NCBI GenBank assembly: GCA_963708605.1
Contig: CAVPTG010000013.1
Coordinates: forward strand, 140,748-204,747
Length of the DNA stretch: 64,000 nt
Direction of reading: 5' to 3'
Origin: Candidatus Dormiibacterota bacterium
Lineage (GTDB): Bacteria > Chloroflexota > Dormibacteria > Aeolococcales > Aeolococcaceae
In this document: positions 2,320 to 30,855 of the stretch, one piece after another
Position numbering within the stretch: position 1 is the first letter of the stretch
Layout of the letters: each line of letters starts with the position of its first letter
Translations under genes and position numbers: made by a program
Notes under the pieces: generated by a model
Databases searched by the model: none
What the model saw: only the letters and a program-made list of their open reading frames with translations
What the model was told of the DNA's origin: nothing

Positions 2320-2941
2320 CGACCGCCCCTATCAGGGACGCCCCTCTTCGGACCGTCCCTCGTTCTCCGGCCCCCGGCAGTTCTCGGGCCCTCGACCGAG
2401 TTTCAACAACAACGATTCGCGGAACGACTCGCGGCCGCCGTTCCGCCCGGCGCCGAGAGTGGAAGTACCTGCGGCGCCGATGTCGCACTCGCTGCGCCTT
2501 CGTGACGGCGACCGCGAGATCGAGGTGAGTGGCTCGGCAGCCTTCGTGCGCCAGGTTCTCGATGACCTTCCTGCGATGTGGACCCGCCTGCATGGCGAGG
2601 GCTCGACCCGGCCTGCCCGGATCGATCTTCCTGCCCACGCCGACGCACCCGCACCGGCTGTTGCCGAGCACGTGAACCGTGTTCCCGAGAGCGCGCCCGA
2701 GCCCGCCCGGACAGTGGCACCGGCAGTGGCCTCCAACGGCAAGCACACCACCACCCGCAGCACCCCCGACGACAAGGTGCTCGCGGTCCTCAAGGAATCA
2801 ACGCGACCCCTCGCGGTAGCGGCGATCCGCAAGCGCCTCGGCGGCAGCTTCACGCCCCAGCAGGTCCGGCGCATCCTCGAGCGCAATGCCCCGAAGGTCA
2901 CCGTCACCGACGAGCGGCCGGCGACCTACCGGCTCCGCTGA
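2312..2941 (+). CDS. Hypothetical protein with C-terminal winged-helix-like segment
   Basis: ATG at 2312 overlaps the upstream stop, suggesting translational coupling. Pro/Ser-rich N-terminus; C-terminus KVLAVLKESTRPLAVAAIRKRLG...QVRRILE is HTH-like. Confidence 0.45.
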   Translation: MPDDRPYQGRPSSDRPSFSGPRQFSGPRPSFNNNDSRNDSRPPFRPAPRVEVPAAPMSHSLRLRDGDREIEVSGSAAFVRQVLDDLPAMWTRLHGEGSTRPARIDLPAHADAPAPAVAEHVNRVPESAPEPARTVAPAVASNGKHTTTRSTPDDKVLAVLKESTRPLAVAAIRKRLGGSFTPQQVRRILERNAPKVTVTDERPATYRLR

Positions 2942-3096
2942 CCGTCGCCGCCATCTGAGCCGGATTCAGCAAGGCGTAGCAAGCACCCTCTGTGGACTGG
3001 CGGCAGGGGGCCGCCCTACACCCGTTGAGCCATTCTCTCTTCTGAATCCTGTCGGGTGGCGTTGCGCATAATGGGGCGGGCAGGGAACTCCTCACT

Positions 3097-3555
3097 ATGC
3101 GACGTCCATTCCTCGTCCTCCTGACCTCGCTGCTCGTCGTCCTGACGGCATGTTCGTCTGCAACGGCTGACGGGCCTTCGGGCACGCCGGCTCCGACGCC
3201 GTACCCGACACCCGTAGGCGGGCTCGGCCACCGTCCCGCCACGCCGGTGAAGATTGAGCTGCTTTCCCCTACCTCGGGGGAGGTCGTGCACGGGACCACG
3301 CTGGTTGTGAGGGTATCTATCACCGGCGGCACTATCACCACGGTGACCACCGGCGACATCACGCCCACCAAGGGTCACGTCCATCTGTACCTCAACAACC
3401 AGCTGATCTACATGAGCTACACGCTGTCGCAGCCGATCACCGTGAAACCGGGGCTTCCATACTCGATGTACGCGGAGTTCGTCGCCCAGGACCACTTCCC
3501 CTTCTCGCCTCGGGATGTCACACCGACGGTGTTCTTCACCGTCGCTCCGGCCTGA
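3097..3555 (+). CDS. Lipoprotein (signal peptide + LTAC lipobox), DUF4399-like GHxHL domain
   Basis: MRRPFLVLLTSLLVVLTAC lipobox; KGHVHLYLNNQ motif. Paralogous to the next gene. Confidence 0.6.
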   Translation: MRRPFLVLLTSLLVVLTACSSATADGPSGTPAPTPYPTPVGGLGHRPATPVKIELLSPTSGEVVHGTTLVVRVSITGGTITTVTTGDITPTKGHVHLYLNNQLIYMSYTLSQPITVKPGLPYSMYAEFVAQDHFPFSPRDVTPTVFFTVAPA

Positions 3556-3566
3556 CCCGAGAGAGC

Positions 3567-4082
3567 TTGATCGCGCACATCGTCAGCGGACTCCCACTGC
3601 CGCTGCAGTGGGGTCTGGCGCTCCTGATCTTTGGTGGCGGCCTCCTGGTCTTCGCAGTCCGGCGGGCCGCCCTGCGGATCGCAGGAGCGGTGGCGGCTCT
3701 CTGTGGCGCGGGCGGCCTCCTGGCCAGCTGGGTATTCAGCCCGGCACTGCTGGTGGCGGCGCCGTACTCTGTGCGCATCGTGTCGCCCACTCCCGGGGCC
3801 GCTGTCGGCGCGCCGCTCACGCTCACCGTGTGCGGGGTCGAGGCGTCCGGCAGGCTCGTGCCGGCGACGTCCTCACAGTTCTACCTCGCCGTGATCATCG
3901 ACGGCGTCCAGGAACCGACGGTCGACGTCTGGCACGTGCCGGTCGATCTCTCGCCGGGACGGCACGCCATCCAGGTCGAGCTCGTCAGCCCGAGCCACCA
4001 GTCGTTCAATCCACCCGCGACCTTCACGGAGACGATCACGGTCGCCGCAGGCGCGGCGCCGGCCGCTCCGGGGAGCTGTTGA
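3567..4082 (+). CDS. Membrane-anchored paralogue of the upstream lipoprotein
   Basis: N-terminal TM helices followed by a domain alignable to the 3097-3555 product (VxIxSPxxGxxV...GxHxIxxEL). Confidence 0.55.
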   Translation: MIAHIVSGLPLPLQWGLALLIFGGGLLVFAVRRAALRIAGAVAALCGAGGLLASWVFSPALLVAAPYSVRIVSPTPGAAVGAPLTLTVCGVEASGRLVPATSSQFYLAVIIDGVQEPTVDVWHVPVDLSPGRHAIQVELVSPSHQSFNPPATFTETITVAAGAAPAAPGSC

Positions 4083-4780
4083 GCGACGAGCGCAGGGCCC
4101 GCATCCTTGTCGTCGAGGACGACTCGGCGCTGCGCGAAGTCCTTGCCGGCGCGCTCGACTCTGCCGGTTACGAGACCTCGGTCGCTGCCCATGGGATCAC
4201 CGCGTCGCAGATGCTTCGGGACCCGGAGGCCATCGACATCGTCCTGCTCGATATCGGCCTGCCCTTCGTTGATGGCTGGCAGATCCTCGAGCACCTGGAC
4301 AATCACCAGCGCCCAGCGGTCATCGTCATCAGCGCTCGAGGTGAGGAGACCGACAAGGTTCGGGCCCTCGACCTGGGTGCCGACGACTACCTGGCCAAGC
4401 CTTTCGGCGCCGAGGAGCTGCTGGCTCGCGTGCGTGCGGTTCTCCGGCGCGTCAGGCCACCCGTTGGCGCCGGTGGCGTCGTCGTGCGGGGCAACGTCCG
4501 GGTCGACCTCGGCGCCCGGTCGGTCACGCGCGGCACCGTGGAGGTACGGCTTTCGCCGACCGAATGGCTGCTGCTCGCCGAGCTGGCCCGGAACGCCGGC
4601 GCCACGCTCGACCACCGCACCCTGCTTCAGCGCGTGTGGGGACCGCAGTATGCGGACGAGCGCAACTATCTGCGGACTTTCGCGCAGCGCCTGCGGGTCA
4701 AGCTCGAGGACGACCCGGCACACCCCGACATCGTGGTGACGGTGGGACGCCAGGGGTACCGATTCGGGCCACCTCGTTGA
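4079..4780 (+). CDS. kdpE: OmpR-family response regulator, KdpE-like
   Basis: RILVVEDD receiver domain and a C-terminal winged helix (NYLRTFAQRLRVKLEDDPAHPDIVVTVGRQGYRF) closely resembling KdpE. TTG at 4079 lies 5 nt after GGGAG and overlaps the upstream stop (TTGA). The longer 3515..4780 ORF was rejected. Confidence 0.8.
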   Translation: MSDERRARILVVEDDSALREVLAGALDSAGYETSVAAHGITASQMLRDPEAIDIVLLDIGLPFVDGWQILEHLDNHQRPAVIVISARGEETDKVRALDLGADDYLAKPFGAEELLARVRAVLRRVRPPVGAGGVVVRGNVRVDLGARSVTRGTVEVRLSPTEWLLLAELARNAGATLDHRTLLQRVWGPQYADERNYLRTFAQRLRVKLEDDPAHPDIVVTVGRQGYRFGPPR

Positions 4781-4807
4781 TGCTTCGTTGACGGCATCGT
4801 CGAGAAG

Positions 4808-5605
4808 ATGTGCGCTGCGATGGCGTCGAATCTGAGCAGCCGCCGGGCGATTGTCTCCGGTCTCCGGCCGGTGGTGGTGTTCGTCGCTGCGGTGGTCGTG
4901 CCCGTCGTACTCGCGCTGGCACTCATCCCGTTTCGCAGCCAGGAGCCGGCTGCGACGGTTGCGCTCGGATTCGCCGTCGTGGTGTCGTTGCTTGCCGCCA
5001 CCGGGACACGCGGCTCAGCGCTTATTGCGGCCGTGTCGGCGGCACTCTGCTACGACATCGGTTTCACCCAGCCGTATGGGTCGCTGACGATCTCGCACCC
5101 GCAGGACATCGAGACGACCGTCCTTCTGCTCGTCGGCGGCCTCATCGTCGGTCAGCTCGCGGCTCGAAATCGCTCGCATCGCAGCCTCGCCGTGCAACAG
5201 CGCGAGGACCTCTCGCACGTCCAGGCAATCGCGGAGCTCATGGCCGCCGGCGCCGGGCCTGACGAGGTTGTCGAAGCCGTGGCCGACGAGCTGCGCAGCC
5301 TGCTCGGCCTGCGCGAGTGCTGGTTCGACACGTCGCGTCCGGAACGGCCGGGCCCAACGATCGACCGCAACGGCAACGTGAGCTGGGGGCGGACCTGGTG
5401 GGGGGTTGACACGCTCGGACTCCCCGGCAAGGAGATCACCATCGAGGTCGAGCACGATGTCCGTCGCCTCGGCCGCTATGTTCTGGTTGCTGAGGCCGGC
5501 ACCAAGGTGCGGCGCGATCAGCTGCTCGCCGCCGTGACGCTGGCCGACCAGGCCGGAGCCGCGCTGGGTTCCGGTCCCACACCGGTAGCGCTCGCGCATC
5601 GCTGA
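4808..5605 (+). CDS. KdpD-type transmembrane domain (DUF4118) plus GAF-like domain protein; no kinase domain
   Basis: Four TM helices with conserved YDIGFTQPYGSL, as in the KdpD membrane module, followed by a ~130-aa GAF-like region. Confidence 0.6.
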   Translation: MCAAMASNLSSRRAIVSGLRPVVVFVAAVVVPVVLALALIPFRSQEPAATVALGFAVVVSLLAATGTRGSALIAAVSAALCYDIGFTQPYGSLTISHPQDIETTVLLLVGGLIVGQLAARNRSHRSLAVQQREDLSHVQAIAELMAAGAGPDEVVEAVADELRSLLGLRECWFDTSRPERPGPTIDRNGNVSWGRTWWGVDTLGLPGKEITIEVEHDVRRLGRYVLVAEAGTKVRRDQLLAAVTLADQAGAALGSGPTPVALAHR

Positions 5606-5921
5606 GCGCACCCGTCGAAATCATGCAGTCGACGGTCGGCAAGGCAGCCCAAATCCATCGCGGAGACGGCGCGCGAATGTCACGCAGATCTCAGGTTCGG
5701 TGACCTCTGACTCGACCGACCTTGGGTGTCCACGGGGAATCGTGTGCCCAAGATGCGTCGTCCTACAGCCAGGCGTCGGGCGGCACGGCGTTGACGTTGC
5801 GTTGACTCTGACTACCGGAGACTGCGAACAGTGATGCCGCCTGAACTACTGGTTCTTCTCTGTTTCTTGGGGATGTTGGTCGCGAGCATCCTCATGGTCG
5901 CCGGACTCCGGAGGATCTGAG

Positions 5922-6017
5922 GTGGGCAGCCTCACCGGCTACATCGTCGCCGCGATCATCGCGTTCATCGCGGCGACCTATCTGCTCATCGCGCTGGTCG
6001 CTCCGGAGCGCTTCTGA
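5922..6017 (+). CDS. kdpF: K+-transporting ATPase subunit F
   Basis: 31-aa hydrophobic peptide VGSLTGYIVAAIIAFIAATYLLIALVAPERF with the ...PExF ending of KdpF. GGAGG lies 7 nt upstream of the GTG start; TGATG overlap with kdpA. Confidence 0.6.
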   Translation: MGSLTGYIVAAIIAFIAATYLLIALVAPERF

Positions 6018-7741
6018 TGGTCCTCGACATCATCGCCGTTGTGATCACCTATGCCGCTGTGGGGGTCGGCGCGTGGTTCCTTGGCAGCTACATGGTCAAG
6101 GTGTACAAGGGCGAGCGTGTCTGGCTGAGCCGCGTGCTCCGACCGGTCGAAAGGATCACCTACAAGATCATCGGCGTCGACGAGGAGCGCGAGCAGGGAT
6201 GGATCGCTTACACGGTGTCGATCCTTGCGGTCGCGCTGGTGAGCACCACGTTCACCTACCTGGTGCTGCGTTTCCAGGACCATCTTCCCCTCAACCCGCA
6301 ACATCTACCCGGCGTCCCGGCACCGCTCGCGTTCAACACGGCGATCAGCTTTGCCACCAACACCAACTGGCAGAACTACACCGGCGAGACCACGATGAGC
6401 TACTTCTCGCAGATGGTCGCTCTCGTGCTGCACAACTTCTTGAGCGCCGCGATGGGCATGGCGGTCGCCATCGTGGTCATCCGGGCGATCGCGCGACGCA
6501 CCATGAGCACGCTCGGCAACTTCTGGGTCGACACGGTGCGCGGCACCCTCTATGTGCTGCTGCCGATCAGCGTTGTCATCGCCGTGATCCTGGTCGCAAA
6601 TGGCGCCATTCAGAACTTCAGCGGCTACTCGGTCGTGCACACACTCACAAACGGGATTCAGACAATCGCTCAGGGGCCGGTTGCGTCGCAGGAGGCGATC
6701 AAGGACCTCGGCACCAACGGTGGCGGCTTCTTCAACGCCAACGCCGCCCACCCATTCGAGAACCCCAACGGCTTCACCAATGCGCTCGAGATCTTCGCGT
6801 GCCTGTTGATTCCCTTCAGCCTCGCGATCACCTTCGGAAGGTGGGTGGGACACGTCAAGCAGGGGATCGCGTTGGGTGCGGTCATGGGGATCATCCTGAT
6901 CAGCGCATGTGGCGTCGCCGCCTGGCAGGAGCAGCAGGGCAACCCCGCACTGGTCGGGACCGGCGCGACGCAGGTCGCCTCCGCCCAGTCCGCAGGCGGG
7001 AACATGGAGGGCAAGGAAGTTCGTTTCGGGCCCATCCAGAGCGCGCAGTACAACACCGCCACGACTGGCACCAGCACCGGCTCTGTCGACGCGTCCCAGG
7101 ACAGCTTCACGGCGTTAGGCGGCCTTATCCCGCTCGTGCTCATCAAGCTCGGCGAGATCACGCCCGGAGGTGTCGGCTCCGGCCTTTACGGGATGGTGGT
7201 CTTCGCGATCGTCGCGGTGTTCATCGCCGGTCTGATGGTCGGCCGAACGCCGGAATACGTGGGCAAGAAGATCGAGGCGCGCGATGTCAAATACGCAGCC
7301 ATTGCCATCCTCGTCCTGCCCGCATCGATCCTCGGATTCTCCGCCATCGCCGTGCTCACAGCGGGAGGGCAGGCTGGGCCGATCGCGACGCAGGGGACGC
7401 CGCACCAGCTCACTGAGATCCTGTATGCGTTCGCCTCAACGACGGGCAACAATGGCAGCGCGTTCGCGGGTCTGACGGGGAACACGCTCTACTACAACCT
7501 GATGCTGGCCGGCGCCATGTGGCTGGGGCGGTTCCTGTTCATCATCCCGGTGATGGCGATGGCGGGCAATCTCGTCAAGAAGAAGATCGTCCCGGCCAGC
7601 GCAGGCACCTTTCCCACCGACGGACTGCTCTTCGTTGCGCTCCTGGTTGGAACCATCCTCGTTGTCGCCGCACTGACGTTCTTCCCGGCAGTCTCGCTCG
7701 GACCCATCCTCGAGCACTTCAAGCTCATTGCGGTGCATTGA
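6017..7741 (+). CDS. kdpA: Potassium-transporting ATPase subunit A
   Basis: 574-aa polytopic protein with full-length KdpA similarity; located at the head of kdpABC. Confidence 0.95.
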
Positions 7742-7742
7742 G

Positions 7743-9818
7743 ATGGCCTTGGCAGCCGCTCACCATCCCCGACGCCGCCGCAGCAGCGTCACCGACCCGG
7801 CGTTGCTCTTCCCCGCGATCGCGCAGAGCTTCGTGAAGCTGGACCCACGCGTGATGGTGCGCAACCCGGTGATGTTCGTCGTCGAGATCGGCGCGGTGAT
7901 GACCACATACGTCTTCATCGCGGACATCGTGGGGAGCGCCGTCGACACCAGCTTCGTCGGGCAGATCGCTCTCTGGCTCTGGTTCACGGTGCTCTTCGCA
8001 AACTTTGCCGAGGCGATCGCCGAGGGCCGCGGCAAGGCGCAGGCACAGGCGCTGCGCCGCACACGCACGGAGACGATCGCCCGTAAGCTGCAGGGCGGCG
8101 TCGGCGGCAAGGAAACTCCGACCCCCGCCCCCGACCTGCGCAAGGGCGACATCGTCGTCTGCGAGGCAGGCGACGTCATACCGAGTGACGGCACGATCAT
8201 CGAGGGGATCGCGAGCGTCGACGAGTCCGCGATCACCGGTGAATCTGCACCGGTCATTCGTGAGGCCGGCGGCGACCGCAGCGCCGTCACCGGCGGGACG
8301 CGTGTGCTCAGCGACCGCATCGTCATTGAAATCACGCAGAACCCGGGCGAGACCTTCCTCGACCGCATGATCTCGCTTGTGGAGAGCGCCTCGCGGCAGA
8401 AGACTCCCAACGAGATCGCGCTCAACATTCTGCTGGCGAGCCTGACCCTGATCTTCCTGATCGCTGTGGTCACGCTGCAGCCGTACGCCGTCTTCTCGGG
8501 CGCGTCCATCGAGGTCACCGTGCTCGTCGCGCTTCTCGTCTGCCTCATCCCGACGACGATTGGCGGTCTGCTCAGCGCGATCGGCATCGCCGGAATCGAC
8601 CGCCTGCTCCAGAAGAACGTCCTTGCCATGTCCGGCCGCGCCGTCGAAGCGGCCGGCGACGTCGACACCCTGCTGCTCGACAAGACCGGCACGATCACGC
8701 TGGGCAATCGCCAGGCCACGGAGTTCCTGCCGGCACCCGGTGTGACCATGGAGCACCTGGTCCGCGCCGCCGACCTGGCGAGCCGCGCCGATGAGACCCC
8801 AGAGGGACGCTCGATCGTGGCCCTGGCCCGGCGGTTCGGCGCGCCGGAGGCCGAGGGCGATACCGTCTGGACCTTCGTGCCCTTCACGGCAGAAACGCGC
8901 ATGAGTGGTGTCGACAATGCCACGGGCAGCATCCGCAAGGGTGCGGGCGATGCCGTCGCGAAGTGGTGTGCCCAGGGCAAAGCCGATGATGGTGCCGTGC
9001 CCCAGGGCGTGACGGAGCAGGTCGAGGTCATCGCACGCAGTGGCGGCACGCCGCTGCTCGTGGCGCAGAACCACGTCATCCTCGGCACCATTCACCTGAA
9101 GGACATCGTCAAACCGGGGATAGCGGAACGGTTCGCCGAGCTGCGTCGGATGGGCCTGCGCACCGTGATGATCACGGGAGACAACCCGCTCACCGCTGCC
9201 GCCATCGCCGCCGAAGCCGGTGTCGACGACTTCCTGGCCGAGGCGACGCCGGAGAACAAGCTCGACCTCATCCGTCAGGAACAGGCGGGAGGGAAGCTCG
9301 TTGCAATGACCGGCGACGGAACCAACGACGCCCCCGCGCTTGCGCAGGCAGACGTCGGCGTTGCAATGAATAGTGGAACGCAGGCGGCCAAGGAAGCCGG
9401 CAATCTTGTCGACCTGGATAGCGACCCGACCAAGCTGATCGAGATCGTCGAGACGGGCAAGCAGATGCTCATCACGCGCGGTGCGCTGACCACCTTCAGC
9501 ATCGCCAACGACGTCGCCAAGTACTTCGCGATCATCCCGGCGATGTTCACCGCCTACGTGGCGCTCAAGCCGCTCGCGGTGCTGAACGTCATGCACCTGC
9601 AGTCGGCGCATAGCGCCATCCTGAGCGCGGTCATCTTCAACGCCCTCATCATCATCGCGCTCGTTCCACTCGCGTTGCGCGGCGTGCGCTTCCGGGCCGT
9701 CGGCGCCAGCTCCCTGCTGCGCCGCAACTTGCTCATCTACGGTGTCGGCGGCGTCATCGCGCCCTTCATCGGAATCAAGGTCATCGACGTGATCATCAAC
9801 GCGGTACACCTGGTCTAA
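7743..9818 (+). CDS. kdpB: Potassium-transporting ATPase subunit B (P-type ATPase)
   Basis: DKTGTIT phosphorylation motif, TGDNP and [10 protein letters not shown] motifs. ATG at 7743 lies 2 nt after the kdpA stop. Confidence 0.95.
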
Positions 9819-9823
9819 GTGTC

Positions 9824-10477
9824 ATGAATCCACGTAGCTGGCCCAAGGAGCTTCTCATCAGCCTCCGTCTCACGGTGGCTCTCGCCGCCATGGTGATCGT
9901 GTACACCTTCGTCATCACAGGAATCTCGCAGGTCGCTTTCAACAGCAACGCCAACGGCAGCCTGGTAACGATCGGAGGCAAGGCGGTCGGATCCACGATG
10001 ATCGGTCAGAGTTGCCCGCATGAGACCGTCGCCAAGGACGGGAGCCTCAAGATCACCATCGACACGAAGTACTTTCAGGGACGGCTCTCGTACACGACGA
10101 ATGCCAACACAGGGGCGCTGGAGCCGTGTAACGCCGCGAGCTCTGCGGGAAGCAACTACGGTCCCTCCAACTCGCTCCTGTTGGAGAATACCAGGGCCGC
10201 TGTGGCCGCGTACACGGCGGCCGGGGTGTCCACGCCTATCCCGATCGACCTGGTCACCTCAGACTTCACCGGCTTCGACCCGAACATCAGTGAGGCCGCC
10301 GCGCTCGCCCAGGTCAACATGGTCGCCGGCGCCCGGGGCTTCAGCCCCACCAAGCTGCACGCGCTCGTCGAATCCCATGTGCAGGGCCGCATTCTCTGGG
10401 TGTTTGGCGAGCCGGTCATCAATGTCCTGCAGCTCAACCTCGCCCTCGACGCGCAGCAGTCCACCCTCGCCGGCTGA
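9824..10477 (+). CDS. kdpC: Potassium-transporting ATPase subunit C
   Basis: N-terminal TM helix and KdpC-family sequence; sits between kdpB and the sensor genes. Confidence 0.9.
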   Translation: MNPRSWPKELLISLRLTVALAAMVIVYTFVITGISQVAFNSNANGSLVTIGGKAVGSTMIGQSCPHETVAKDGSLKITIDTKYFQGRLSYTTNANTGALEPCNAASSAGSNYGPSNSLLLENTRAAVAAYTAAGVSTPIPIDLVTSDFTGFDPNISEAAALAQVNMVAGARGFSPTKLHALVESHVQGRILWVFGEPVINVLQLNLALDAQQSTLAG

Positions 10478-10495
10478 GGCGTTTGACGGGCCGGC

Positions 10496-12718
10496 GTGGC
10501 GCGCATCATTAGCGGTATGACGGATACGCTCGCCACGGCAGCGGTGCCGGCACCTCCTGCGGTCGCACGCGGCCACCTTCGGGTGTTCCTCGGAGCCACG
10601 CCGGGAAGTGGCAAGACCTTTGCGATGCTCCGTGAGGCGCACGACCGCCGCTCCCAGGGGGAGGACGTCGTCGTCGGGTACGTCGAGACGCACGGGCGCA
10701 AGCTCACCGAGCAGGCGATCGGCAGCCTCGAGGTCGTCCCACGTCTCAAGGCCGAGTACCACGGAAAGCTCATGGAGGAGATGGACCTCGACGCGATCCT
10801 CGTGCGCCACCCCCAGGTGGTGCTCGTCGATGAGCTCGCTCATACCAACGTGCCCGGCGTCCGCCACGCCAAGCGCTACGAGGATGTTGAGGAGATCCTC
10901 GACGCCGGGATAGACGTGGTCACCACCGTCAACGTGCAGCACCTCGAGTTGGTCAAGGACCTCGCCGAGCGCATAACCGGCATACCGGTTCGTGAGACTC
11001 TCCCCGACCAGGTTCTTGACAATGCTGACGAGATCCAGTTCATCGACATCTCCCCCGAGGCACTTCGCAAGCGCATGCGTCACGGCAACATCTACGCCCC
11101 GGAGAAGATCGACACGGCGCTCGCGAACTTCTTCAGGCCCGGAAACCTCGCTGCGCTGCGCGAGATCGCACTTCGACTTGTGGCGCAGACCGTCGGTCGC
11201 GCGCGAGGTGCCGTCCGCCCCGCTCCGCAATCGGTGCTCGTCGCCGTCAGCGGCCGTCAGAGCAGCGGTCCACTGATTCGCCGTGCGAGTCGTCTCGCGA
11301 GGCGCTTCGGCGGCTTCTGCACGGTGCTCGTGGTGACGGGACGTCACGATGAAGAGACCGCCAGCGGCAGAACCAAGGCCAGGGAGCTCGCAGAGCTGTT
11401 GCAGTGCGGGTTCATCGAGCGCCAGGGCAAGGTCGCCGACGCTGTGATCGGGGCTGCCCAGGAACTCAACGTGCAGCATGTCATTGTCGGTGAGGCAGCC
11501 CATCCCGGCGTGCGCGCCCGCCTGCGACGCGGACTCGTGGACCGGCTGATCACCGAGCTCCCGGATGTGAGCGTGCACGTCGTCGCCCGTCCGGCTCCGG
11601 TCAGCGACAATCCATTCGACAGCGAGCAGCGCCCTGACTCGGAGATGCTCCTCCGCGCCCTGCACGCGAGCGCGAGCCGGTCCGGACTACGCGTCTACCT
11701 CGGATATGCCCGGGGCTGTGGCACCACGGTCGCGATGCTCGACGAGGCGAATCGTCGCAGCCAGCGGGGCACGGACGTTGTCGTCGCAGCGGTGAAGACC
11801 GATGGCCGCAACCGCTGCGAGATCGCCCTCGGTGACCTCGAGATGCTCGGCGGGCGAACGTCGCCTGCGCGAGAAGGCATGGTTGACGTGGAAGCGCTGC
11901 TCCGCCGCAACCCGGAGGTCGCGTGCCTCGACGATCTCGCGGGGGTTGACACGCAGGGTCGACCGATCACCGAGGCAGTACCCCGCTTGCTGCGTGCCGG
12001 GATGATGCTGATCGCGACCCTGCACCTCACCGACCTCCGCAGCACCGTCGACGGCATGGGCGCGATGCTCGGGCCACGTCCAGCACATGTTGTGGATGAC
12101 GCCTTCCTCGACGAGGTGACCGAGCTCGAGATCGTCGACATCACGCCTTCGCTCCTGGATGAACGGCTCCGCCGAGGTGAGATCGTCCCGGCGAGCGAGG
12201 CGGCTCGGGCTCGTGCCCTCGCGTTCCGACCCGAGGTCCTCGCCTCGCTCCGCGAGCTGGCCTTCCGAATCCTTGCCGAGCACACCGATCGCCGTCTGAT
12301 TGCGTACATGCGCGACCGCGGGATCGAGACGCCGTGGGAGGTGAAGCCCCGCGTCATGCTCTGCGTGCCGCCGCGCTCCGGCATGGAGGACGTTATCGCC
12401 AGCACCGCGGCGCTCGCCGCTCGACTCGACGGCAAGATGACCGCGGTCACGGTTCGCGATCGCAAGCGCTCCGAGCAGGAGATGCAACTCCTCGGTACCT
12501 ACGCCGCCCTCACCCACCAGGCCGACGGGACCTTTGTGACTCTGTACGACCGCGACCCTGCCAGTGCCCTCACGCACTACGCGCGCAAGATCCTGGCCAC
12601 CGAGATCGTCGTCACCCGTGGTCGCGGACGTCGCGGGACGCTTCGCAAGCTGATCGAGCTCCTCACCGATGTTGACATCCACGTGCTCGCGACCCCGCAC
12701 GGGGCTTCAGCAGCCTGA
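10496..12718 (+). CDS. kdpD: Cytoplasmic tandem [KdpD N-terminal sensor domain + USP domain] x2 protein; no TM or kinase domains
   Basis: Residues 1-375 align with E. coli KdpD-N (LRVFLGATPGSGKTFAML...TVNVQHLE...GNIY...FFRPGNL) followed by a USP domain. Residues ~390-740 repeat the same two domains, with a degenerate P-loop (GYARGCGTT). Confidence 0.85.
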   Translation: MARIISGMTDTLATAAVPAPPAVARGHLRVFLGATPGSGKTFAMLREAHDRRSQGEDVVVGYVETHGRKLTEQAIGSLEVVPRLKAEYHGKLMEEMDLDAILVRHPQVVLVDELAHTNVPGVRHAKRYEDVEEILDAGIDVVTTVNVQHLELVKDLAERITGIPVRETLPDQVLDNADEIQFIDISPEALRKRMRHGNIYAPEKIDTALANFFRPGNLAALREIALRLVAQTVGRARGAVRPAPQSVLVAVSGRQSSGPLIRRASRLARRFGGFCTVLVVTGRHDEETASGRTKARELAELLQCGFIERQGKVADAVIGAAQELNVQHVIVGEAAHPGVRARLRRGLVDRLITELPDVSVHVVARPAPVSDNPFDSEQRPDSEMLLRALHASASRSGLRVYLGYARGCGTTVAMLDEANRRSQRGTDVVVAAVKTDGRNRCEIALGDLEMLGGRTSPAREGMVDVEALLRRNPEVACLDDLAGVDTQGRPITEAVPRLLRAGMMLIATLHLTDLRSTVDGMGAMLGPRPAHVVDDAFLDEVTELEIVDITPSLLDERLRRGEIVPASEAARARALAFRPEVLASLRELAFRILAEHTDRRLIAYMRDRGIETPWEVKPRVMLCVPPRSGMEDVIASTAALAARLDGKMTAVTVRDRKRSEQEMQLLGTYAALTHQADGTFVTLYDRDPASALTHYARKILATEIVVTRGRGRRGTLRKLIELLTDVDIHVLATPHGASAA

Positions 12719-12746
12719 GTCCTCGTGCTCGACACGTCGCGCTCTT

Positions 12747-13952
12747 CTAGGACACGGCCGCCGGATCAGTGACCGCGGGATCCGCGTGAACCGCCTCAAT
12801 GGGAGCGGCCGGGAGCGTGAACGCGAAGACGGCGCCACCGCCCATCTCGGGATCGTCAAGCCAGATCCGCCCGGCGTGTGCCTCGACGATCCCGCGGGCG
12901 ATCGCAAGCCCGAGACCGGTGCCCTCTGCCCCTGACTGCTCATCGCGGACGAAACGGTCGAAGACTCGGTCGCGCAGGCCGGCGTCGACGCCGGGACCGT
13001 GGTCGATGACACGCGTGACGATCGTTCCGCGGACTCCCGGGGCCACGTGGATCTCGATCGGTGACGTCGGAGGTGCATAGCGGTCTGCGTTCACGAGAAG
13101 GTTGTCCAGAACCTGGCCGATCCGGTCCCAGTCGGCAACCGCTTCGAGCGAACCCGGCTCGATGCTCACGCGGACGGTGCGCGTGGGACGGATCTGCTTG
13201 AGGCGCCCGACCGCCGCCTCGACAGCATCACCGACATCGATATCCTCGAGGCGGAGTTCGAGCGCATGCCCCTCGATGCGAGCCAGGTCGAGCATGTCGC
13301 CCACCAGCCGATCGAGCCTCCGGGACTGGGTGACGATGCCGGAGAGACCGTCGCGAACAGCCCCCGGCACATCGGTGCGACCGAGGAGCACCGTCGCACC
13401 GGTGAGAATGCTCGCCAGCGGCGTGCGCAACTCGTGGCTGACGTTCTGGAGCAGTTCACGCCGCACACGGTCCGCGTCTCGCAGCGCGGAGATCTGCTGC
13501 TGGGTCTGCGCAAGCCGGACCGCCGTCCGGGCCGACGCCGCCTGCTCCTGGTACAACCGCTCGAGCTCAACGTTCGCCTCGGCGAGCGTTCGGGTCAGCC
13601 GGTGCGCCTCGATCATCGCGCCCCGACGAAGCGCGGCGACCCCGCCGACCGCGCTGGCGGTCGCGAAGAAGATGACCAGGTAGAGGACGTCGCCCGGATT
13701 GGCGAGGCTGAGGCTGTCCACCGGAGGAAAGAAGAAGTAGTCGCCGAGGACGGATGACAGCACCGCGGCGACCAGCGCCGGGATGAGCCCGGTGAGCAGG
13801 CCGAGTGAAGCGACAATCCCCAGGTAGAGAAAGACGTAGGCGTGCGCTTCCGACGTCGGCAACTGGGCCAGGATCAGGGTCAGGAGCGGCGGACTCACCA
13901 ACGCGATGACGATCCCGGTGACGAGCACGCGATCGGTGCGGAGGCGAGTCAT
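12747..13952 (-). CDS. KdpD-like sensor histidine kinase core (DUF4118 TM domain + HisKA + HATPase), lacking the KdpD-N/USP/GAF regions
   Basis: TM region with the FFFPP motif; HELRTPL H-box; N/G1/G2 boxes (GTGLGLAIA). ATG overlaps the stop of the upstream exonuclease reading frame (TGATG). Confidence 0.8.
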   Translation of the reverse strand: MTRLRTDRVLVTGIVIALVSPPLLTLILAQLPTSEAHAYVFLYLGIVASLGLLTGLIPALVAAVLSSVLGDYFFFPPVDSLSLANPGDVLYLVIFFATASAVGGVAALRRGAMIEAHRLTRTLAEANVELERLYQEQAASARTAVRLAQTQQQISALRDADRVRRELLQNVSHELRTPLASILTGATVLLGRTDVPGAVRDGLSGIVTQSRRLDRLVGDMLDLARIEGHALELRLEDIDVGDAVEAAVGRLKQIRPTRTVRVSIEPGSLEAVADWDRIGQVLDNLLVNADRYAPPTSPIEIHVAPGVRGTIVTRVIDHGPGVDAGLRDRVFDRFVRDEQSGAEGTGLGLAIARGIVEAHAGRIWLDDPEMGGGAVFAFTLPAAPIEAVHADPAVTDPAAVS

Positions 13953-14816
13953 CAGGACGTGGCCAGCTGCTCGTTGAGCGCATCGACAAGACGGCTCGAC
14001 GCGGCCTGCAGGCCGTGCTCGGCCATCAGGCTGTTGAGCGCCGCGGGGTCCGCCGGATAGTGGTCGCGCCGGCCTTCCGGAAGCTCGATCGGGAGGTCGG
14101 GGACCGGTGGAACCACCCGGCTCGCTCGCGTCAGATAGTCCTGGTCGTGCTCGCTCAGCCGCCGGGACTTCGAGAAGCGCCGCGACGCCACCATGCTGGC
14201 GGATCATCGAGGCGGCAGCGACTGCGCCAACGCCTTTCAACCCCGGCAGCCCATCCGACGGATCGCCACGCAGCATCGCGTAATCCGCGTAGCGACGCCC
14301 TGGGATCCCGTAGCGCCGGGTCACCTCGGATTCGTCGACGAGTGCCCATGCCCCCTTCTCCGGGTAGAGCACCGTGACCCGCGGGTCCTCGACCAGCGCG
14401 AACAGGTCGCGGTCACCACTCACGATCTCGACGGTCGCGGCGGCCCTCGCGGTCCAGGTGGCGATGACGTCCTCCGCCTCGTACCCGGCGACGCCGAGCG
14501 CATCGATGCCGATCGCGGCAAGGAACGCGTCGATGACCGGCATCTGCGGGATGAGTGCCGGCGGGATCGGCTCCGCGACCCGCTGCGCTTTGTATCCCGG
14601 GATCAGCGCCACCCGCCAGTCCGGGCGCCAGTCGGCATCACTCGCGATCGCCAGGTGCTTCGGCTCCCTGGTGCCGGCCAGCCGCGTCAGCGTCTCGAGG
14701 AATCCCCGTGCGGCGTTGATCAGCCTTCCGTCCGGGGACCGCACCGTCTTGGGGACGCCGTAGAAGGCGCGGAAGATGAGGCTGGACCCGTCGACGAAGA
14801 GCCAGTCGCAGGACAT
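13952..14816 (-). pseudogene. 5'-3' exonuclease (FEN/Pol I N-terminal-like), reading frame interrupted near 14170-14200
   Basis: N-terminal PIN domain (WLFVDGSSLIFRAFYG) and H3TH motif (LPGLKGVGAVAAASMIRQHGGVAALLE) lie in one frame. The plausible C-terminus (...LSEHDQDYLTRASRVVPPVPDLPIELPEG...LATS*) lies in another frame, ending exactly at the kinase start. This could be a sequencing indel or a genuine frameshift. Confidence 0.65.
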
Positions 14817-14903
14817 CGACCGTCTACCGGCACCCATTCATGTGCGCGGCCATCGTAGCGTCCACCGGCTCGCTCCTCCGGGCTCATCTGCGACGCTTCC
14901 GGT

Positions 14904-15497
14904 ATGCGCGCCGACATCCCGGAGTTGATCGTCGCGGACGCCGCCGCGTGGCGAGCCTGGCTCGCGGAGAACCACGCCAACCCCGCCGGGGTCTGGCTCG
15001 TCCTGTCCAAGAAAGGCACCACCCAGCCAACCGCGCTCACGTACGCTCAGGCCCTCGACGAGGCGCTCTGCCATGGCTGGATCGACGGCCAGGCCGCCCC
15101 GCGGGATGACACGACGTACCAGCAGCGGTTCACGCCACGGCGGGTACGAAGCAACTGGTCGGCGCGCAACGTCGGGATCGTGCGCCGGCTGCGCTCCGAG
15201 GGCCGGATGCATCCCGCCGGGGAGGCCGAGGTCGAGCGGGCGCAGCGCGACGGGCGCTGGGAGGCCGCCTACTCGGGCCCGGCATCCAGCGAGGTGCCAC
15301 GCGACCTCGCGGCGGCGCTGGCGGCGCAACCGCCGGCACAGGCGATGTTCGAGATCCTGACGAGCCAGAATCGCTACGCGATCCTCTATCGCCTCGGGAG
15401 CGTGAAGCAGCAGGCCACCCGCGAGCGGCGCATCGATCAGTTCGTGGCGATGCTCGCCCGCGGCGAGACCTTCTACCCGCAGAAGCGCACCCTCTGA
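14904..15497 (+). CDS. YdeI/OmpD-associated family protein
   Basis: N-terminal AAWRAWLAENH...GVWLV and C-terminal FEILTSQNRYAILYRL motifs are typical of this family. Confidence 0.55.
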   Translation: MRADIPELIVADAAAWRAWLAENHANPAGVWLVLSKKGTTQPTALTYAQALDEALCHGWIDGQAAPRDDTTYQQRFTPRRVRSNWSARNVGIVRRLRSEGRMHPAGEAEVERAQRDGRWEAAYSGPASSEVPRDLAAALAAQPPAQAMFEILTSQNRYAILYRLGSVKQQATRERRIDQFVAMLARGETFYPQKRTL

Positions 15498-17838: not shown

Positions 17839-20800
17839 CTACTGGAACCAGCCCGCGAGGTCGAGGATCGCATTGATCGTGCCAAAGGCGTTGTACAGAG
17901 CCACATCACCCACAGACGGCACGCTCTGGGCGACGCCGACGATCGACAGATTCGCTCTGACCTCGCCGGCGAGCGCGTTCAGGTCCGAGGCGCGCGGGAC
18001 TTGAACGACATTGGCCGGGAAGAGCGTGAACAGCGTGGTTGCATTCCCCGCCACCGCCGTCACATTGGCGACGATCGCAATCGGTGGCGTTCCGCTCATC
18101 ACCGGCACCTCGTGGACCCCCGCGACCGGGATCGCCAGTGTGGAATTGCCGCCGAGCGTCTCGCCTGCGCACTCGGTGCCTGAGCCGGTGCGAGTGTCAC
18201 AAATGCGCGTCGGTGCGACTGAGTTGAACAGAGCACCCACCGTCGTTTCGGCGCCCGTGCCGAACCACCCGTCGACATCGATGATGAAGTCGACGCTCCC
18301 CACCGCGTTGAAGACGCACACGTCATTCCGCGGTCCGAGCGCTGAGATCACACGGTTGGGCAAACTCTGATTCGCCGCCGGGTTCACGTTGGAAACCAAC
18401 GGCCGGGCCGGACATTGGTCGCTGCTGTTCGGTGGGGCGACCGCGAGGTAGGTTGCCTGGGTATCCGCGGTTGCCGTGAGATTGAAGACGGCGGTCGCGG
18501 CTGTTCCGTCGGATGGTATCGACGGGGTTGAAGGAGGAGCTCCAGGTGGCAGGCCGGACAGCACGACATCGCGCCAGGTCCCGCCTGCGACCCGGCCGCC
18601 GCACCCGATTCGAGTGTCGCATCGTCTCAACGGCGCAATGCTGTGGAATTCGCCGGGAACGATCCCGGAACCTACGGGAGTGGCGAAGTATCCCTCGACA
18701 TCCACAATCACGTCGGCAACTCCAACGGCGTTGTAGAGCGTTATCGCCCCCGCGGCGCTGAGCTGCACGATCGCCAGGTTGGTCGCGACGCCGCTGTGCT
18801 GGATATTGATATTGGACGCGAGAGGCCGCGCGACGCCTGTCGGATACGCGGTGATAAGGGTGCTCGAATTCGTGTCATTGACCGCAGTCAAATTGACTAC
18901 GACGGAGCGAGCTCCGGCCGGCACCACTCCCCCGGTGATCTGAACGTTCAGGGTGCCACCGGAGCCGAGAGCCCTTCCCTTGCACTGATTCGGCGGTATG
19001 GTCGAGGCGGACCGGGTGTCGCATGCGCGGAACGGCGTGATCGCGTGATAAGCGGTCGGGTCGAGGTACACATACGCGGACGGGTCAACAGCCGTGCTGT
19101 GGTCGGGATTGGTGATGGTCAGCGCGGCGGCTCCCGCTCCATTGGATGGCGGTACGGTTGCCGACCACGAGTTGGTGCCCGTGCTGGTGAGCGTCAACGG
19201 GTGGCCGCCGAGAGACATCGCCACCCCGGGTTGGAGGTCGACCCCGGTGATATGAATCGTTCCACCACCGGACGGCGGCCCCGATGCCGGCGTGAGGGTC
19301 AGGACGCCCGGGCCAACTTCGAGCTTGCCCGCGCCCCAGGTCGGGGCCGCCCTGCTGTTGGTGAGCGGAGTCGTGTTCGCGGACTGTGCGAGCAGCGACT
19401 TCGCCTGTGCGACGTCGATTGTGGGCTGCTGTTCGAGCAAGAGTGCAAGCGCACCCGCGACATGCGGAGAGGCCATGCTCGTGCCCTGGAGGAACAGGTG
19501 GTTGCCGTCTGATGGCTCGCATCCCTCGAATGAGCCGGCGGGACAATCACCGGCGATCGTTCCCTCTGCCGCCACGGAGGAGAGCGAGGAACCGATCTCC
19601 TCGCCGGGAGCAACGATGTCGATCCCAGTGCGACCATCCAGGGTGGGCCCGTGGCCGCTGAAGCTGCTGATGGCGCCTACGACTGAGGAGTCCGTCTGCG
19701 TGCCGAGATAACTGGGCCAGGAGTTCCTGCTGACATAGCTGCCGACGGCGATGACGTCGTGCGCGCTCGCGGGTTCGTCGAGCGTCGAATTGTCGTTTCC
19801 GTCGCCGACGTAGAAGAAGTAGTCCCCCTGATCAAACGTCCATGCGTTGTACTCACCACTCGGCGTCGTGTTACCCCGCAGCAGCACCTGAAAGTCGTTG
19901 AAACATGGGAAGGTCACTGAACAATCGATCCCGTCCGCTGGGGAGATGAGGCCCGCGGCACCGCCCGAATTCGCGTTGAAGAGGGCTATCTGGATTTCAT
20001 TCATACCGTTGCTGGGCATGTGCGTGCACGAGAGGATCTCGAGAACATTGCCTTGGGTATCAGTGAATTCGTCCCCTCCGGGCGTCGGCTGGGTACACGC
20101 GCCGCCCTCTCCTGAGACGCCGGTTGTATCGGGCGACACCCAGGCCGTCTGGCCATGGCCGGGTTCATTGATCGCCGCTGAGATTGAGTTTGCTCCCGGG
20201 TACCAGAGGTCGAGAAATATGGGCATGGCCTGCGCAACAAGGCCGTCAGTCCGCACTTGCCCAAATGCCACCGTTCCACTGGCGTGATAGTGAAACGACG
20301 GATCGTTGGTCGCTTCATTGCCACCCGCGACGCTGACAAGCTTTCCCGGACCAGTGAGCGCGTCGAGCATCGTTTCGAATATGTCGCTGCCGTCATGGGG
20401 ACCCACGTTGGTACCGAGGCTGATATTCACCGAGGCGGGTTCGCCACGCGACCCTGCAACCTTGAAGATGTACGCAACCCCGTCTACGATGTGCGCGAGG
20501 TTACCGTCGTTCTTGACAATGACGAGGTCCGACTCCGGCGCTACGCCGATATAGGTTCCCCAGGATGCCGCGCGTCCGTCGGAGGCTGCGATCCCGGCGA
20601 CGTGTGTCCCGTGCCCATCGCAGTCCTCTTCAGGCAAGGATTCGGGGGCGGACCCCACAACGCCAACCGGCGTATCACAGGGATCAGGCCCGTACTGGCT
20701 GTACGAGAACGGACCGCAGGCTGCTGCTTTGATCGCCGATTGGCTGCACTCGGCGCCATACGTGAATCCCTGCGAGTTGGGTGGCTGAGCGGGGCAACTG

Positions 20801-22716: not shown

Positions 22717-22790
22717 TGGGCGGGCCTGGATTCGAACCAGGGACCGTGGGGTTATGAGCCCCCTGCTCTAACCGGCTGAGCTACCCGCCC
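22717..22790 (-). tRNA. tRNA-Met (anticodon CAT)
   Basis: 74-nt cloverleaf GGGCGGGTAGCTCAGCCGGTTAGAGCAGGGGGCTCATAACCCCACGGTCCCTGGTTCGAATCCAGGCCCGCCCA. G1:C72 pair is elongator-like; CCA is not encoded. Confidence 0.85.
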
Positions 22791-25651: not shown

Positions 25652-25694
25652 TCGCGGATCATCACCCGCAACGAGCGGCCCGCGTCGCCCGGCG

Positions 25695-27492: not shown

Positions 27493-27593
27493 GCCGGCCC
27501 AGACTGCCAGACGACCTCTGACGTTGCCGTCACGGGGTCGCAACGATCGAGTTCGCCCCCCGGTGACGCCGGCGACCGAGCCGGGTCAGGCGA

Positions 27594-30500: not shown

Positions 30501-30716
30501 ATGCGCATCGCCGCGTGCATGCTGTGACGCTGCTGTGAGCGACGCCGCGCGCGCGAATGCGCTTGCGATGACTGGCGTCGCTGACCACGCAACGGTGAGT
30601 GCGGCGACCAGCGCGGACGACAGGATGAACGTTCGGCGCACCGCCTCGATTCTAAGTGCGAATCCCGGAAGTGACACGCCGCTGTCACAGAGGTCATCGA
30701 TTCGTGACATCCACAT
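27594..30716 (-). CDS. Large secreted protein: unknown N-terminal domain + IPT/TIG domain + three C-terminal CDTR...GWF repeats
   Basis: Signal-peptide-like segment RRTFILSSALVAALTVAWSATPVIASA. IPT motif SLSPAAGPASGGELVTVAGYDFG. Three repeats paralogous to those in the 17839..22632 product, ending ...DIEGWFQ*. The start could be GTG at 30641. Confidence 0.8.
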   Translation of the reverse strand: MWMSRIDDLCDSGVSLPGFALRIEAVRRTFILSSALVAALTVAWSATPVIASAFARAASLTAASQHARGDAHRTGAPTVRAAAVAAGSSPSLLQNQPGMSDQLALEHAGSSNPNVTSPADPSIAIGPSNIVEAVNSALEVTTRSGASPIFMNLSAMVGNTSGFSLRYPHVVYDPVSGRFVLMVLQYNPTLSGCVSQVEVMLSQANPALPWITRGQINIDPEIGGGVELSTVSLAITGSVLVETSDYQSCSTGLPVASQMEVIRRVDFISGAFTANSDAFVEPGPIGLQPAQAWTAQTVAYAVANNANCSGRVSGSIAVFAINGVPTAGGVTVTCTAGPEPTPTSTPPAAAQAGTAATLTTGTDSFLSAVWQGNVLWVAGNTGCTPGGDSQVRSCLNIVSIPATGTSVGTPAQFPAESVSGAYLYDPALALDSAGDAILTFDKSSSSALESMMVAAITGGVWSSLTTLHQSTNFYQPAACSTCAWGDYSAAVQDPSRPTDVWVVSEENDGNTVPDCATANTCWNTYIGRYTFAGPVIASLSPAAGPASGGELVTVAGYDFGTDSTFTFNGSPVLPTTGSLTPDAFTFTTPPGSSGLVEGQVHDSLGTSPITVGTGYIYVGLANYHPILPYRILDTRPASCVQCAQDPTFGPGTIRKVQLTGLAFGVPIPSDSTAVVLNVTEVAGTANSLLTVYPFGTGLPRASNLNFAAGKVIANLVTVTLGQGGAIDIYNAAGTVNVLADVEGYFEPAPSSTVTGEFHPIAPVRVCDTRSMSPTPACKAHGILGPGAAMLVNVTGIGIGSDSVPADGSASAVVVNLTGVAGTANTFLSLSATTSTGQCPYSGTHGPQFSNVSLSAGLVAANRVMVQLGPTTPGGHPTSLCVFNAAGSINVVIDANGWFGSSTAAAGAQYQAIQPTRICDTRTVGGGPGCAGHAIAPPTPSLITVAGQGGIPSVTSGTTVVAVIANLTAIAPTAATYLVMYPATPGRSPNASDINVSTGEVLPNLVVVQLDPLAGAGQGDADLYNAAGSVNAVVDIEGWFQ

Positions 30717-30855
30717 GGCGCCCGCCGGACGACTGTCCGGGCGTCCGGCAGCGGCGATGGCGTATAAAATCGCCCTACGGATCGCTGGCGGATCGCCAAC
30801 TTCAGGAGATGCTCGATGACCGACCTACGCGGCTGGAAACCGGTTTCCCTCGCTG

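Follow-up and report, generated by a model that had tools for sequence, protein, structure and literature searches.

A Kdp locus of a Dormibacterota bacterium in which the modules of KdpD are encoded on separate polypeptides, including a tandem KdpD-N/Usp protein with a degenerate second copy

The Kdp locus considered here lies in a 64-kb window (the whole stretch of DNA that was analysed) from an uncultured soil bacterium of the Dormibacterota, with a G + C content of about 67%, and is compared with the described systems that control the Kdp pump through the protein KdpD. The N-terminal domain of KdpD (KdpD-N) was reported by Silberberg et al. (2024) to be an atypical serine kinase, which phosphorylates KdpB at Ser162 of the TGES motif and inhibits the pump (PMC11018627). 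This activity requires a Walker A motif (G-x5-GKT), the Walker B residues D109/E110 and an aromatic/arginine pair, and both isolated KdpD-N and a short KdpD/Usp protein of Deinococcus geothermalis phosphorylate KdpB in vitro; the chain that carries the serine kinase is typically kept downstream of the pump (PMC11018627). In a survey of 5495 species by the same authors, the commonest split architecture was KdpD/Usp + TM/GAF/DHpCA (TM, transmembrane domain), found in 140 species, mostly Acidobacteriota and Chloroflexota; rare three-way splits are tabulated as well, for example “KdpD, Usp + TM, GAF + DHpCA” in 1 species (PMC11018627). In Supplementary Data 2 of that work, 86 species (80 Bacillota, 2 Cyanobacteriota and 4 Nitrospirota) are assigned to a further class, “KdpD domain, Usp domain x2”, which is confined to the supplementary table, as the terms “duplicat”, “double”, “two KdpD” and “repeat” do not occur in the main text (PMC11018627). 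Species with KdpE overwhelmingly carry a histidine kinase, and Dormibacterota are not in the data set (PMC11018627). No published work on a Dormibacterota Kdp system was found beyond incidental mentions.

In the window, an intact kdpFABC is surrounded by four regulatory genes, which were characterized by hidden Markov model searches and structure prediction and which encode a KdpE-like response regulator, a kinase-less DUF4118 protein with a GAF-like half (TM-GAF protein), a soluble tandem KdpD-N/Usp protein and a short membrane histidine kinase. On the forward strand, from 3097 to 12718, the order is lipoprotein-like gene, membrane-protein gene, regulator, DUF4118 protein, 28-codon open reading frame (ORF), kdpFABC and tandem gene; on the reverse strand, an open frame (12747-14837) that converges on the tandem gene contains the N-terminal part of an exonuclease and the DUF4118-HisKA-HATPase_c kinase. 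The modules of E. coli KdpD/KdpE (KdpD-N, Usp, DUF4118 TM, GAF as a predicted fold, DHp, CA and KdpE) are all found somewhere in the locus, and the TGES motif of KdpB is conserved; canonical E. coli KdpD is however a single polypeptide, whereas the locus encodes four, with the TM and KdpD-N/Usp parts each present twice. Searched with the canonical KdpD model (NF007793 / PRK10490; cut-off 1123 bits), the tandem protein, the kinase and the TM-GAF protein score 428, 142 and 37 bits, each over part of the model. Our reading, to which we give a probability of about 0.6, is that Kdp regulation is divided among separate proteins and operates at two levels, transcription and pump activity.

The locus resembles the split KdpD systems of Acidobacteriota, Chloroflexota, Anabaena, Deinococcus radiodurans and Alicyclobacillus (PMC11018627) in that a serine-kinase chain lies directly 3' of the pump, a separate histidine-kinase chain carries a DUF4118 TM domain and a KdpE-type regulator is present. 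The kinase of those systems is of the TM/GAF/DHpCA type, whereas here it is devoid of GAF, and the predicted GAF lies on a third, kinase-less TM protein; other differences are the tandem duplication of the serine-kinase chain and the placement of the regulator gene before kdpF, where it shares an operon with the genes of two unrelated envelope proteins. The x2 class also has two KdpD-N + Usp units on one soluble chain of about 740-765 residues, and two such units are found here; that class is listed without a histidine kinase (PMC11018627), whereas a kinase and a regulator accompany the tandem protein in the window. An earlier note on this DNA, made from its sequence, had presented such fragmentation combined with duplication as unusual. 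This was overstated, since split KdpD (140 of the 5495 species) and the x2 class (86 species) had both been catalogued (PMC11018627). Split KdpD and the x2 architecture as such are already known; the features that appear undescribed are the consistent pseudokinase character of copy 2 of the tandem protein, the combination of a GAF-less kinase with a stand-alone TM-GAF protein, and a shared predicted operator.

The closest relatives of the window genes are nearly all from metagenome-assembled genomes (MAGs) of Candidatus Dormibacterota (AD3). A comparison of the kdp neighbourhood in related genomes, which the earlier note had suggested as a check, was performed on 40 related loci, all from close relatives (tandem protein at least 81% identical). 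In essentially every sufficiently long locus, the order lipoprotein, membrane protein, regulator, TM-GAF, kdpFABC, tandem is kept, with the kinase and the exonuclease on the opposite strand, and the whole layout recurs in about 35 independently assembled Dormibacterota genomes. That the pieces are fragments of one canonical kdpD, frameshifted or mis-assembled, is an explanation in keeping with at least one indel-type frameshift in the window (in the exonuclease gene) and with broken tblastn matches in several related long-read MAG loci. Against it, both strands carry pieces, kdpFABC is flanked by them on either side, each gene has full-length homologues of matching size (112 of the tandem protein, with at least 700 residues, and 240 of the TM-GAF protein, those listed being of about 230-290 residues), and the recurrence of the layout comes from independent assemblies. 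Domain searches, whose failure to assign KdpD-N or DUF4118 to these frames was named in the earlier note as counting against it, detected two PF02702 and two DUF4118 domains, more than one kdpD supplies; because these duplicated domains are moreover on two strands, the locus is not one broken kdpD. This explanation is effectively refuted, and the claim that the KdpD modules are carried by separate, conserved polypeptides is sustained.

Since synteny among 40 close loci alone proves little, more distant carriers (58-64% identity in the tandem protein) were examined. L041 contains kdpFABC, the tandem gene and a convergent gene for a 393-residue DUF4118-HisKA-HATPase kinase, all other neighbours being different, with no regulator, TM-GAF or exonuclease gene nearby. 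The order in L042 is Na/Ca exchanger, regulator, 30-residue ORF, kdpFABC, tandem and convergent 382-residue kinase; L044 has the tandem gene, the regulator and a convergent 389-residue kinase; and in L046 kdpFABC and the tandem gene are followed by a 427-residue kinase on the same strand (with a stop/start overlap), then by a convergent regulator. All these kinases (382-427 residues) are GAF-less like that of the window and lie beside the tandem gene. Across the rearrangements of order and orientation, pump and tandem protein thus remain associated with a short DUF4118 kinase without GAF and with an OmpR-type regulator, which is good evidence that the four form a functional unit. The exonuclease gene and the pair of envelope genes that precede the regulator are incidental neighbours.

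It could be argued that the kinase, and possibly the regulator, are neighbours by descent only, kdpFABC being constitutive or controlled from elsewhere and the tandem protein being the sole Kdp-specific regulator, as in species that have KdpD/Usp only. The generic nature of the kinase core, the co-orientation of the kinase with the unrelated exonuclease gene that it abuts and the published x2 class without histidine kinase (PMC11018627) are all compatible with this. The adjacency of kinase and tandem genes, however, outlasts loss of the exonuclease, change of strand and new neighbours in L041, L042, L044 and L046. In addition, the regulator is KdpE-like, a conserved OmpR/PhoB-style direct repeat is present at the kdp promoter, and KdpE-bearing species overwhelmingly have a histidine kinase (PMC11018627). 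We consider such independence of the kinase from the pump very unlikely.

The tandem gene (10496-12718, forward strand) begins 18 nucleotides 3' of kdpC and encodes 740 residues in which Pfam searches found no TM, HisKA or HATPase domain. Copy 1 consists of an N domain (nucleotides 10565-11194) and a Usp domain (11231-11590), and copy 2 of an N domain (11675-12283) and a Usp-like domain (12344-12694). When each half was scanned alone, PF02702 scored 316 bits in copy 1 and 143 bits in copy 2; the two halves share 33% identity in an alignment of 276 residues (E 2e-29), and copy 1 has a match (E 3e-67) to 2r8r, a crystal structure of KdpD-N. The Usp domain is borderline in copy 1 (23.6 bits for a Pfam cut-off of 24) and has no Pfam match in copy 2. 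Both halves align nearly end to end with the NCBIfam model NF038185, “KdpD-like non-kinase potassium sensor” (positions 17-371 and 5-344 of 373), with 342.7 and 147.8 bits, the whole protein reaching 485.8 bits for a cut-off of 550. In the AlphaFold model (pLDDT 82, pTM 0.65), each half is composed of an N domain and a five-stranded alpha/beta Usp-like domain, and Foldseek retrieved 2r8r (TM-score 0.95 on the target) and the USP structure 7ji4 of Staphylococcus aureus KdpD (0.81). The soluble protein with two KdpD-N + USP units that the earlier note had placed after kdpC is thus confirmed by two PF02702 domains, the Usp domains that Pfam scores as borderline or misses being covered by the alignments with NF038185, which stay below its cut-off, and by the fold match to 7ji4. 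The protein has at least 120 relatives among cluster representatives (57-93% identity), 111 of them of at least 700 residues and mostly of about 735-745 residues.

Conservation of the catalytic motifs was assessed in 112 full-length tandem homologues. Copy 1 has intact Walker A (GSGKT, in GATPGSGKTF) and Walker B (DE, in VDELAHTN) motifs, in which GKT and DE are invariant in the 112 homologues and which agree with the G-x5-GKT pattern, the Walker B pair and the aromatic residue after GKT of active KdpD-N. In copy 2 these motifs read GCGTT (in GYARGCGTTV) and DD (in LDDLAG): the Walker A lysine is present in none of the 112 homologues and is replaced by threonine in 109, DD stands in place of DE in 110, and the aromatic residue and the AHTN motif are also lost. 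Copy 2 is nevertheless conserved, with a mean column identity of 74% and 34 invariant columns (85% and 69 in copy 1), and its Usp-like part is 73% conserved, versus 66% for the Usp of copy 1. As far as can be judged from the alignment, this pattern is the signature of a catalytically dead module kept for a structural or regulatory role.

In the earlier note, the tandem protein had been taken as one piece of a sensor assembled from several polypeptides. KdpD-N being now regarded as a serine kinase acting on KdpB and not as a sensor part (PMC11018627), the protein is better read as a separate, post-translational off-switch of the pump than as the sensor piece of a histidine kinase. It might instead be a non-catalytic nucleotide or K+ sensor that modulates the histidine kinase or the regulator and does not phosphorylate KdpB. 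KdpD-N was formerly seen in this way, as an input domain that binds ATP and adjusts both the phosphatase activity and the binding of KdpE to DNA; the NCBI family is named accordingly, in E. coli KdpD an N-terminal domain supplied in trans complements the C-terminal one (Heermann et al. 2000, as reported in PMC11018627), and half of the tandem protein is without catalytic residues. The catalytic residues of copy 1 are, on the other hand, all invariant in the 112 homologues, isolated KdpD-N and a short KdpD/Usp protein do phosphorylate KdpB in vitro (PMC11018627), and the tandem gene is predicted to be co-transcribed with the pump, as serine-kinase chains are (PMC11018627). Sensor and kinase roles are, besides, not mutually exclusive. 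A purely non-catalytic role is unlikely in our view, and the off-switch reading is retained below.

An exhaustive search among representatives at 50% identity identified tandem proteins of other lineages in Gloeobacter kilaueensis (WP_023174179.1), in a Sporolactobacillus MAG (MFT9427825.1) and in a Chloroflexota MAG. The Gloeobacter and Sporolactobacillus cluster representatives retain GKT and DE in both copies, and their more canonical copy is the C-terminal one; in the window protein, by contrast, it is the N-terminal copy that is canonical, the other being degenerate. In a neighbour-joining tree of the half-domains (no bootstrap), the degenerate copy-2 domains form one clade, made up of Dormibacterota and related representatives including P0245, and the copy-1 domains of the same proteins cluster with those of single KdpD/Usp proteins and canonical KdpDs. 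The clade of copy-2 domains suggests that tandem proteins of the window type arose through a separate, older duplication, after which the C-terminal copy was inactivated. P0245, a homologue with a degenerate copy 2, is encoded in a Chloroflexota MAG (L043:7723-12310), where its gene follows that of an AA_permease_2 / K_trans-like transporter and not kdpFABC; this context hints that tandem KdpD-N/Usp x2 proteins may regulate other transporters. L022 contains, between its TM-GAF gene and kdpF, one more tandem gene (3187-5241), a diverged paralogue with 46% identity.

The short membrane histidine kinase (12747-13952, reverse strand) is made up of a DUF4118 domain (4-TM), a coiled/helical linker of about 55 residues, HisKA and HATPase_c, all domains being assigned by Pfam, and its translation contains the H-box SHELRTPL. 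It has no KdpD-N, Usp or GAF, since only about 55 residues separate the TM domain from HisKA. These assignments agree with the convergent DUF4118-HisKA-HATPase kinase without N-terminal sensor parts proposed in the earlier note, and the ATG at 13952 corresponds to the start conserved in relatives. One correction is required: the open frame really spans 12747-14837 (696 residues), through fusion with the upstream exonuclease frame. The 5'-3' exonuclease gene (13953-14837, reverse strand), which is not a Kdp component, contains a 1-nucleotide insertion near 14163, where the window reads GAAGTCCCGG and the relatives (L004, L026 and L029) GAAG-CNCGG, and this insertion shifts the exonuclease into the kinase frame. 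A true exonuclease-kinase fusion was rejected, as the exonuclease of the relatives is intact, has 294 residues and stops a few nucleotides before the kinase ATG, the window differing by a single extra base. The insertion may correspond to a real pseudogene or to an indel error. Broken tblastn matches were also noted in several of the related long-read MAG loci, for example for the tandem gene in L028, L029, L032, L033 and L035.

The regulator gene (4079-4780, forward strand; TTG start at 4079) encodes an OmpR-family protein with Response_reg and Trans_reg_C domains. Its top NCBIfam model is KdpE (182.8 bits), and its top PDB matches are the E. coli KdpE structures 4kfc/4kny (E 4e-49, compared with 1e-39 for MtrA); a KdpE-like regulator upstream of kdpF, as the earlier note had it, is therefore found.

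Two direct-repeat boxes with an 11-bp period were found on the forward strand. The first, GTTGATGCTTCGTTGAC (4776-4792), straddles the stop codon of the regulator just upstream of the TM-GAF gene, and the second, GTTGACGTTGCGTTGAC (5790-5806), lies in the candidate kdp promoter region upstream of the 28-residue ORF. The pattern GTTRAY-N5-RTTRAY has exactly 2 matches in the 64-kb window, for 0.02 expected. In an alignment of the region upstream of kdpF from 19 loci, a near-invariant (C)GTTGAC-N4-(C)GTTGAC repeat stands out from diverged surroundings, with a GAtACT-like hexamer and then the start codon (ATG) of the small ORF after it. Both box positions are matched in most related loci; among the distant ones, L046 has the kdp site too, and L042 has it in the variant form CGTTCTC/CGTTCAC. 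The two boxes share the same geometry, that is, the box, 11 nucleotides, a -10-like hexamer (GAAGAT at 4804-4809 for the TM-GAF box, GAGACT at 5818-5823 for the kdp box), about 11-12 nucleotides and an ATG (4820 and 5835, respectively). This geometry points to near-leaderless transcripts and to the ATG at 4820, in a conserved ATGGCG, as the likely start of the TM-GAF protein.

The classical arrangement for activators of the PhoB/OmpR family is two direct repeats with an 11-bp period about 10 nucleotides upstream of the -10 element. PhoB-type promoters with a Pho box are alike in having two direct repeats of 6-7 bp with this period about 10 nucleotides before the -10 element, in replacement of a normal -35 element; the (C)GTTGAC repeat itself is unrelated to the E. 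coli Pho box and to the AT-rich KdpE site of E. coli, and constitutes a candidate site. We infer that the KdpE-like regulator has its putative operator in the GTTGAC boxes and that the kdp regulon includes the TM-GAF gene. A search allowing 2 mismatches gave 8 matches for 4.8 expected, with no further credible sites, and generic sigma-70 and terminator scans of positions 2800-15000 were uninformative, the results being at or under shuffle expectation. Riboswitch control of kdp, for example by a c-di-AMP (cyclic di-AMP) ydaO element, was discarded: the window has no Rfam match at the gathering score, and nothing meaningful was obtained in 5500-6100 at E <= 5.

The TM-GAF gene (4820-5605, forward strand) lies in an ORF that opens at 4808 and has a conserved ATGGCG start at 4820; it encodes 265 residues. 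DUF4118 (4-TM) covers residues 26-130, the TM region matches the KdpD TM structure 2ksf, and the protein aligns with positions 403-544 of the KdpD model. The earlier note had described a DUF4118 TM + GAF-like protein without kinase: the DUF4118 domain and the lack of a kinase stand, whereas Pfam finds no GAF domain, and the designation “GAF-like” applies to a predicted fold only. This fold is predicted for the C-terminal half with a pLDDT of about 90, and many residues at 148-250 are invariant. The 240 homologues that were found have, among those listed, about 230-290 residues (typically about 270) and DUF4118 only. The TM domains of the TM-GAF protein and of the short kinase are paralogous (33% identity). 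The gene is limited to the closer clade and, even there, is apparently missing from L009 and L030.

The TM-GAF protein might be a decoy that pairs with the short kinase through the 4-TM domain, forming kinase-dead heterodimers that provide negative feedback after induction and carry no K+ signal. It has no DHp/CA, its TM domain is paralogous to that of the kinase, its gene is preceded by the promoter box of kdp, so that its level would rise after induction, and it is dispensable in related genomes, all of which would suit a decoy. Such a decoy would however have no need of a conserved, well-folded GAF, and the invariant residues at 148-250 together with the high pLDDT argue for the binding of a ligand or partner; we regard the decoy as decidedly unlikely and favour a role of the GAF in K+ input.

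Under the two-level reading, the proposed mechanism comprises three steps, given in decreasing order of support. First, for transcription, the short kinase would sense low K+ via its membrane domain and phosphorylate the KdpE-like regulator, which would bind the GTTGAC-N5-GTTGAC boxes and activate two near-leaderless units, the small ORF-kdpFABC-tandem gene unit and the TM-GAF gene. Second, for pump activity and by homology with characterized KdpD-N kinases, the tandem protein would be made along with the pump, and its copy 1 would phosphorylate the TGES serine of KdpB and turn the pump off when K+ is sufficient. Copy 2, from which the Walker A lysine and Walker B glutamate have been lost, would be non-catalytic; it is probably the built-in partner or regulatory half of a pseudo-dimer, as it is kept under selection in spite of this loss. 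Third, and least certain, the TM-GAF protein would be a clade-specific, kinase-less copy of the K+-sensing core of KdpD, induced with the pump, and would most likely act in trans, conveying intracellular K+ as a GAF input to the short kinase (by TM-TM pairing) or to the tandem kinase. A more speculative version, which we think improbable, is that the TM-GAF protein senses K+, docks on the pseudokinase half and gates copy 1, the kinase dealing with transcription alone, so that the two outputs of KdpD would be fully uncoupled. If this were true, the degenerate copy 2 and the TM-GAF protein would form a regulatory switch new to Kdp, with a pseudokinase as the coupling element.

Several observations weigh against the proposed division of Kdp regulation. 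The score of the regulator (182.8 bits) is below the KdpE equivalog cut-off (325). The DHp-CA core of the kinase is generic, HK853 (130 bits) being a better match than KdpD 6lgq_C (89 bits), and the kinase is linked to Kdp solely by its DUF4118 domain and its conserved neighbourhood. The link between the boxes and the regulator comes from geometry, and neither the pattern search nor the 2-mismatch search found a box upstream of the regulator operon or of the kinase (exonuclease-kinase unit). The TM-GAF gene, which none of the distant loci contains and which at least L009 and L030 of the close clade also appear to lack, is therefore not essential to the system. Finally, the c-di-AMP-binding motif of KdpD USP domains, (A/G/C)XSXSX2N(Y/F) in the beta1-alpha1 loop (PMC8214093), is unmatched in both Usp domains when aligned by eye, the loop sequences being AVSGRQSS in copy 1 (S246 to R, N249 to S) and CVPPRSGM in copy 2; as this motif was derived from Firmicutes (PMC8214093), its lack does not exclude binding.

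KdpD, a textbook sensor kinase, is still debated in its inputs: whether it responds to extracellular or intracellular K+, what the TM and GAF domains each contribute and what governs the recently found serine-kinase activity. The natural separation of the modules in this locus (TM-DHpCA, TM-GAF, active and inactive KdpD-N/Usp) offers ready-made constructs for questions of sensing and pairing. The conserved catalytic loss in one half of the tandem protein would represent a clear bacterial case of a pseudokinase partner of an atypical serine kinase, and the boxes a candidate KdpE-type operator for the high-GC, uncultured phylum Dormibacterota.

The pump genes themselves are contiguous and intact on the forward strand, with full-length Pfam matches for kdpA, kdpB and kdpC and kdpF recognized by direct reading. 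kdpF (5922-6017; translation VGSLTGYIVAAIIAFIAATYLLIALVAPERF) has a weak TIGR02115 match, kdpA (6017-7741) matches PF03814 with 753 bits, and kdpC (9824-10477) matches PF02669 with 172 bits. kdpB (7728-9818; start TTG 7728 or ATG 7743) encodes a P-type ATPase with E1-E2_ATPase and Hydrolase domains, whose translation contains AITGESAPV, including the serine targeted by KdpD-N kinases. A hydrophobic 28-residue ORF (5835-5921, forward strand; MPPELLVLLCFLGMLVASILMVAGLRRI), read from the sequence, abuts kdpF. It is kept as an ORF in 18 close loci and in the distant L041, L042, L045 and L046, has 28-30 residues across loci, beginning MPLDLL... in relatives, and matches no NCBIfam family; its product may be either a leader peptide or an additional Kdp subunit with a single TM segment.

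Two envelope genes on the forward strand precede the regulator directly and are part of its operon context, without being Kdp components. The first (3097-3555) encodes a lipoprotein-like protein of 152 residues, with no family in Pfam and NCBIfam scans; it is syntenic in the close clade only, with other genes in its place in L041 and L042. The second (3567-4082) encodes a membrane-anchored protein of 171 residues with a weak DUF4399-like C-terminus (17.8 bits, below the cut-off), which is the only family match, and a sub-threshold one, that the Pfam and NCBIfam scans gave for the pair. Its stop overlaps the start of the regulator (TTGA at 4079-4082). The C-terminal parts of the two proteins are alike and beta-rich, and both genes are replaced by others in the distant loci.

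Elsewhere in the window, no diadenylate cyclase or second KdpD was found among the 20 large ORFs scanned, in a survey that was not exhaustive. A hybrid GAF-HisKA-HATPase-REC histidine kinase (47305-49137, reverse strand) is by its position unrelated to the kdp locus. A single tRNA gene (22717-22790), an ATP-dependent DNA ligase (23987-25813) and a membrane H+-pyrophosphatase (36879-38987), all on the reverse strand, represent ordinary chromosomal content, and no sign of a mobile element was seen around the kdp locus. The reverse strand also encodes a secreted-type protein of 1597 residues with Peptidase_S8, PQQ_2 and TIG domains (17839-22632), a CHAP-domain protein of 645 residues (25648-27585) and a secreted-type TIG-domain protein of 1076 residues (27594-30824).

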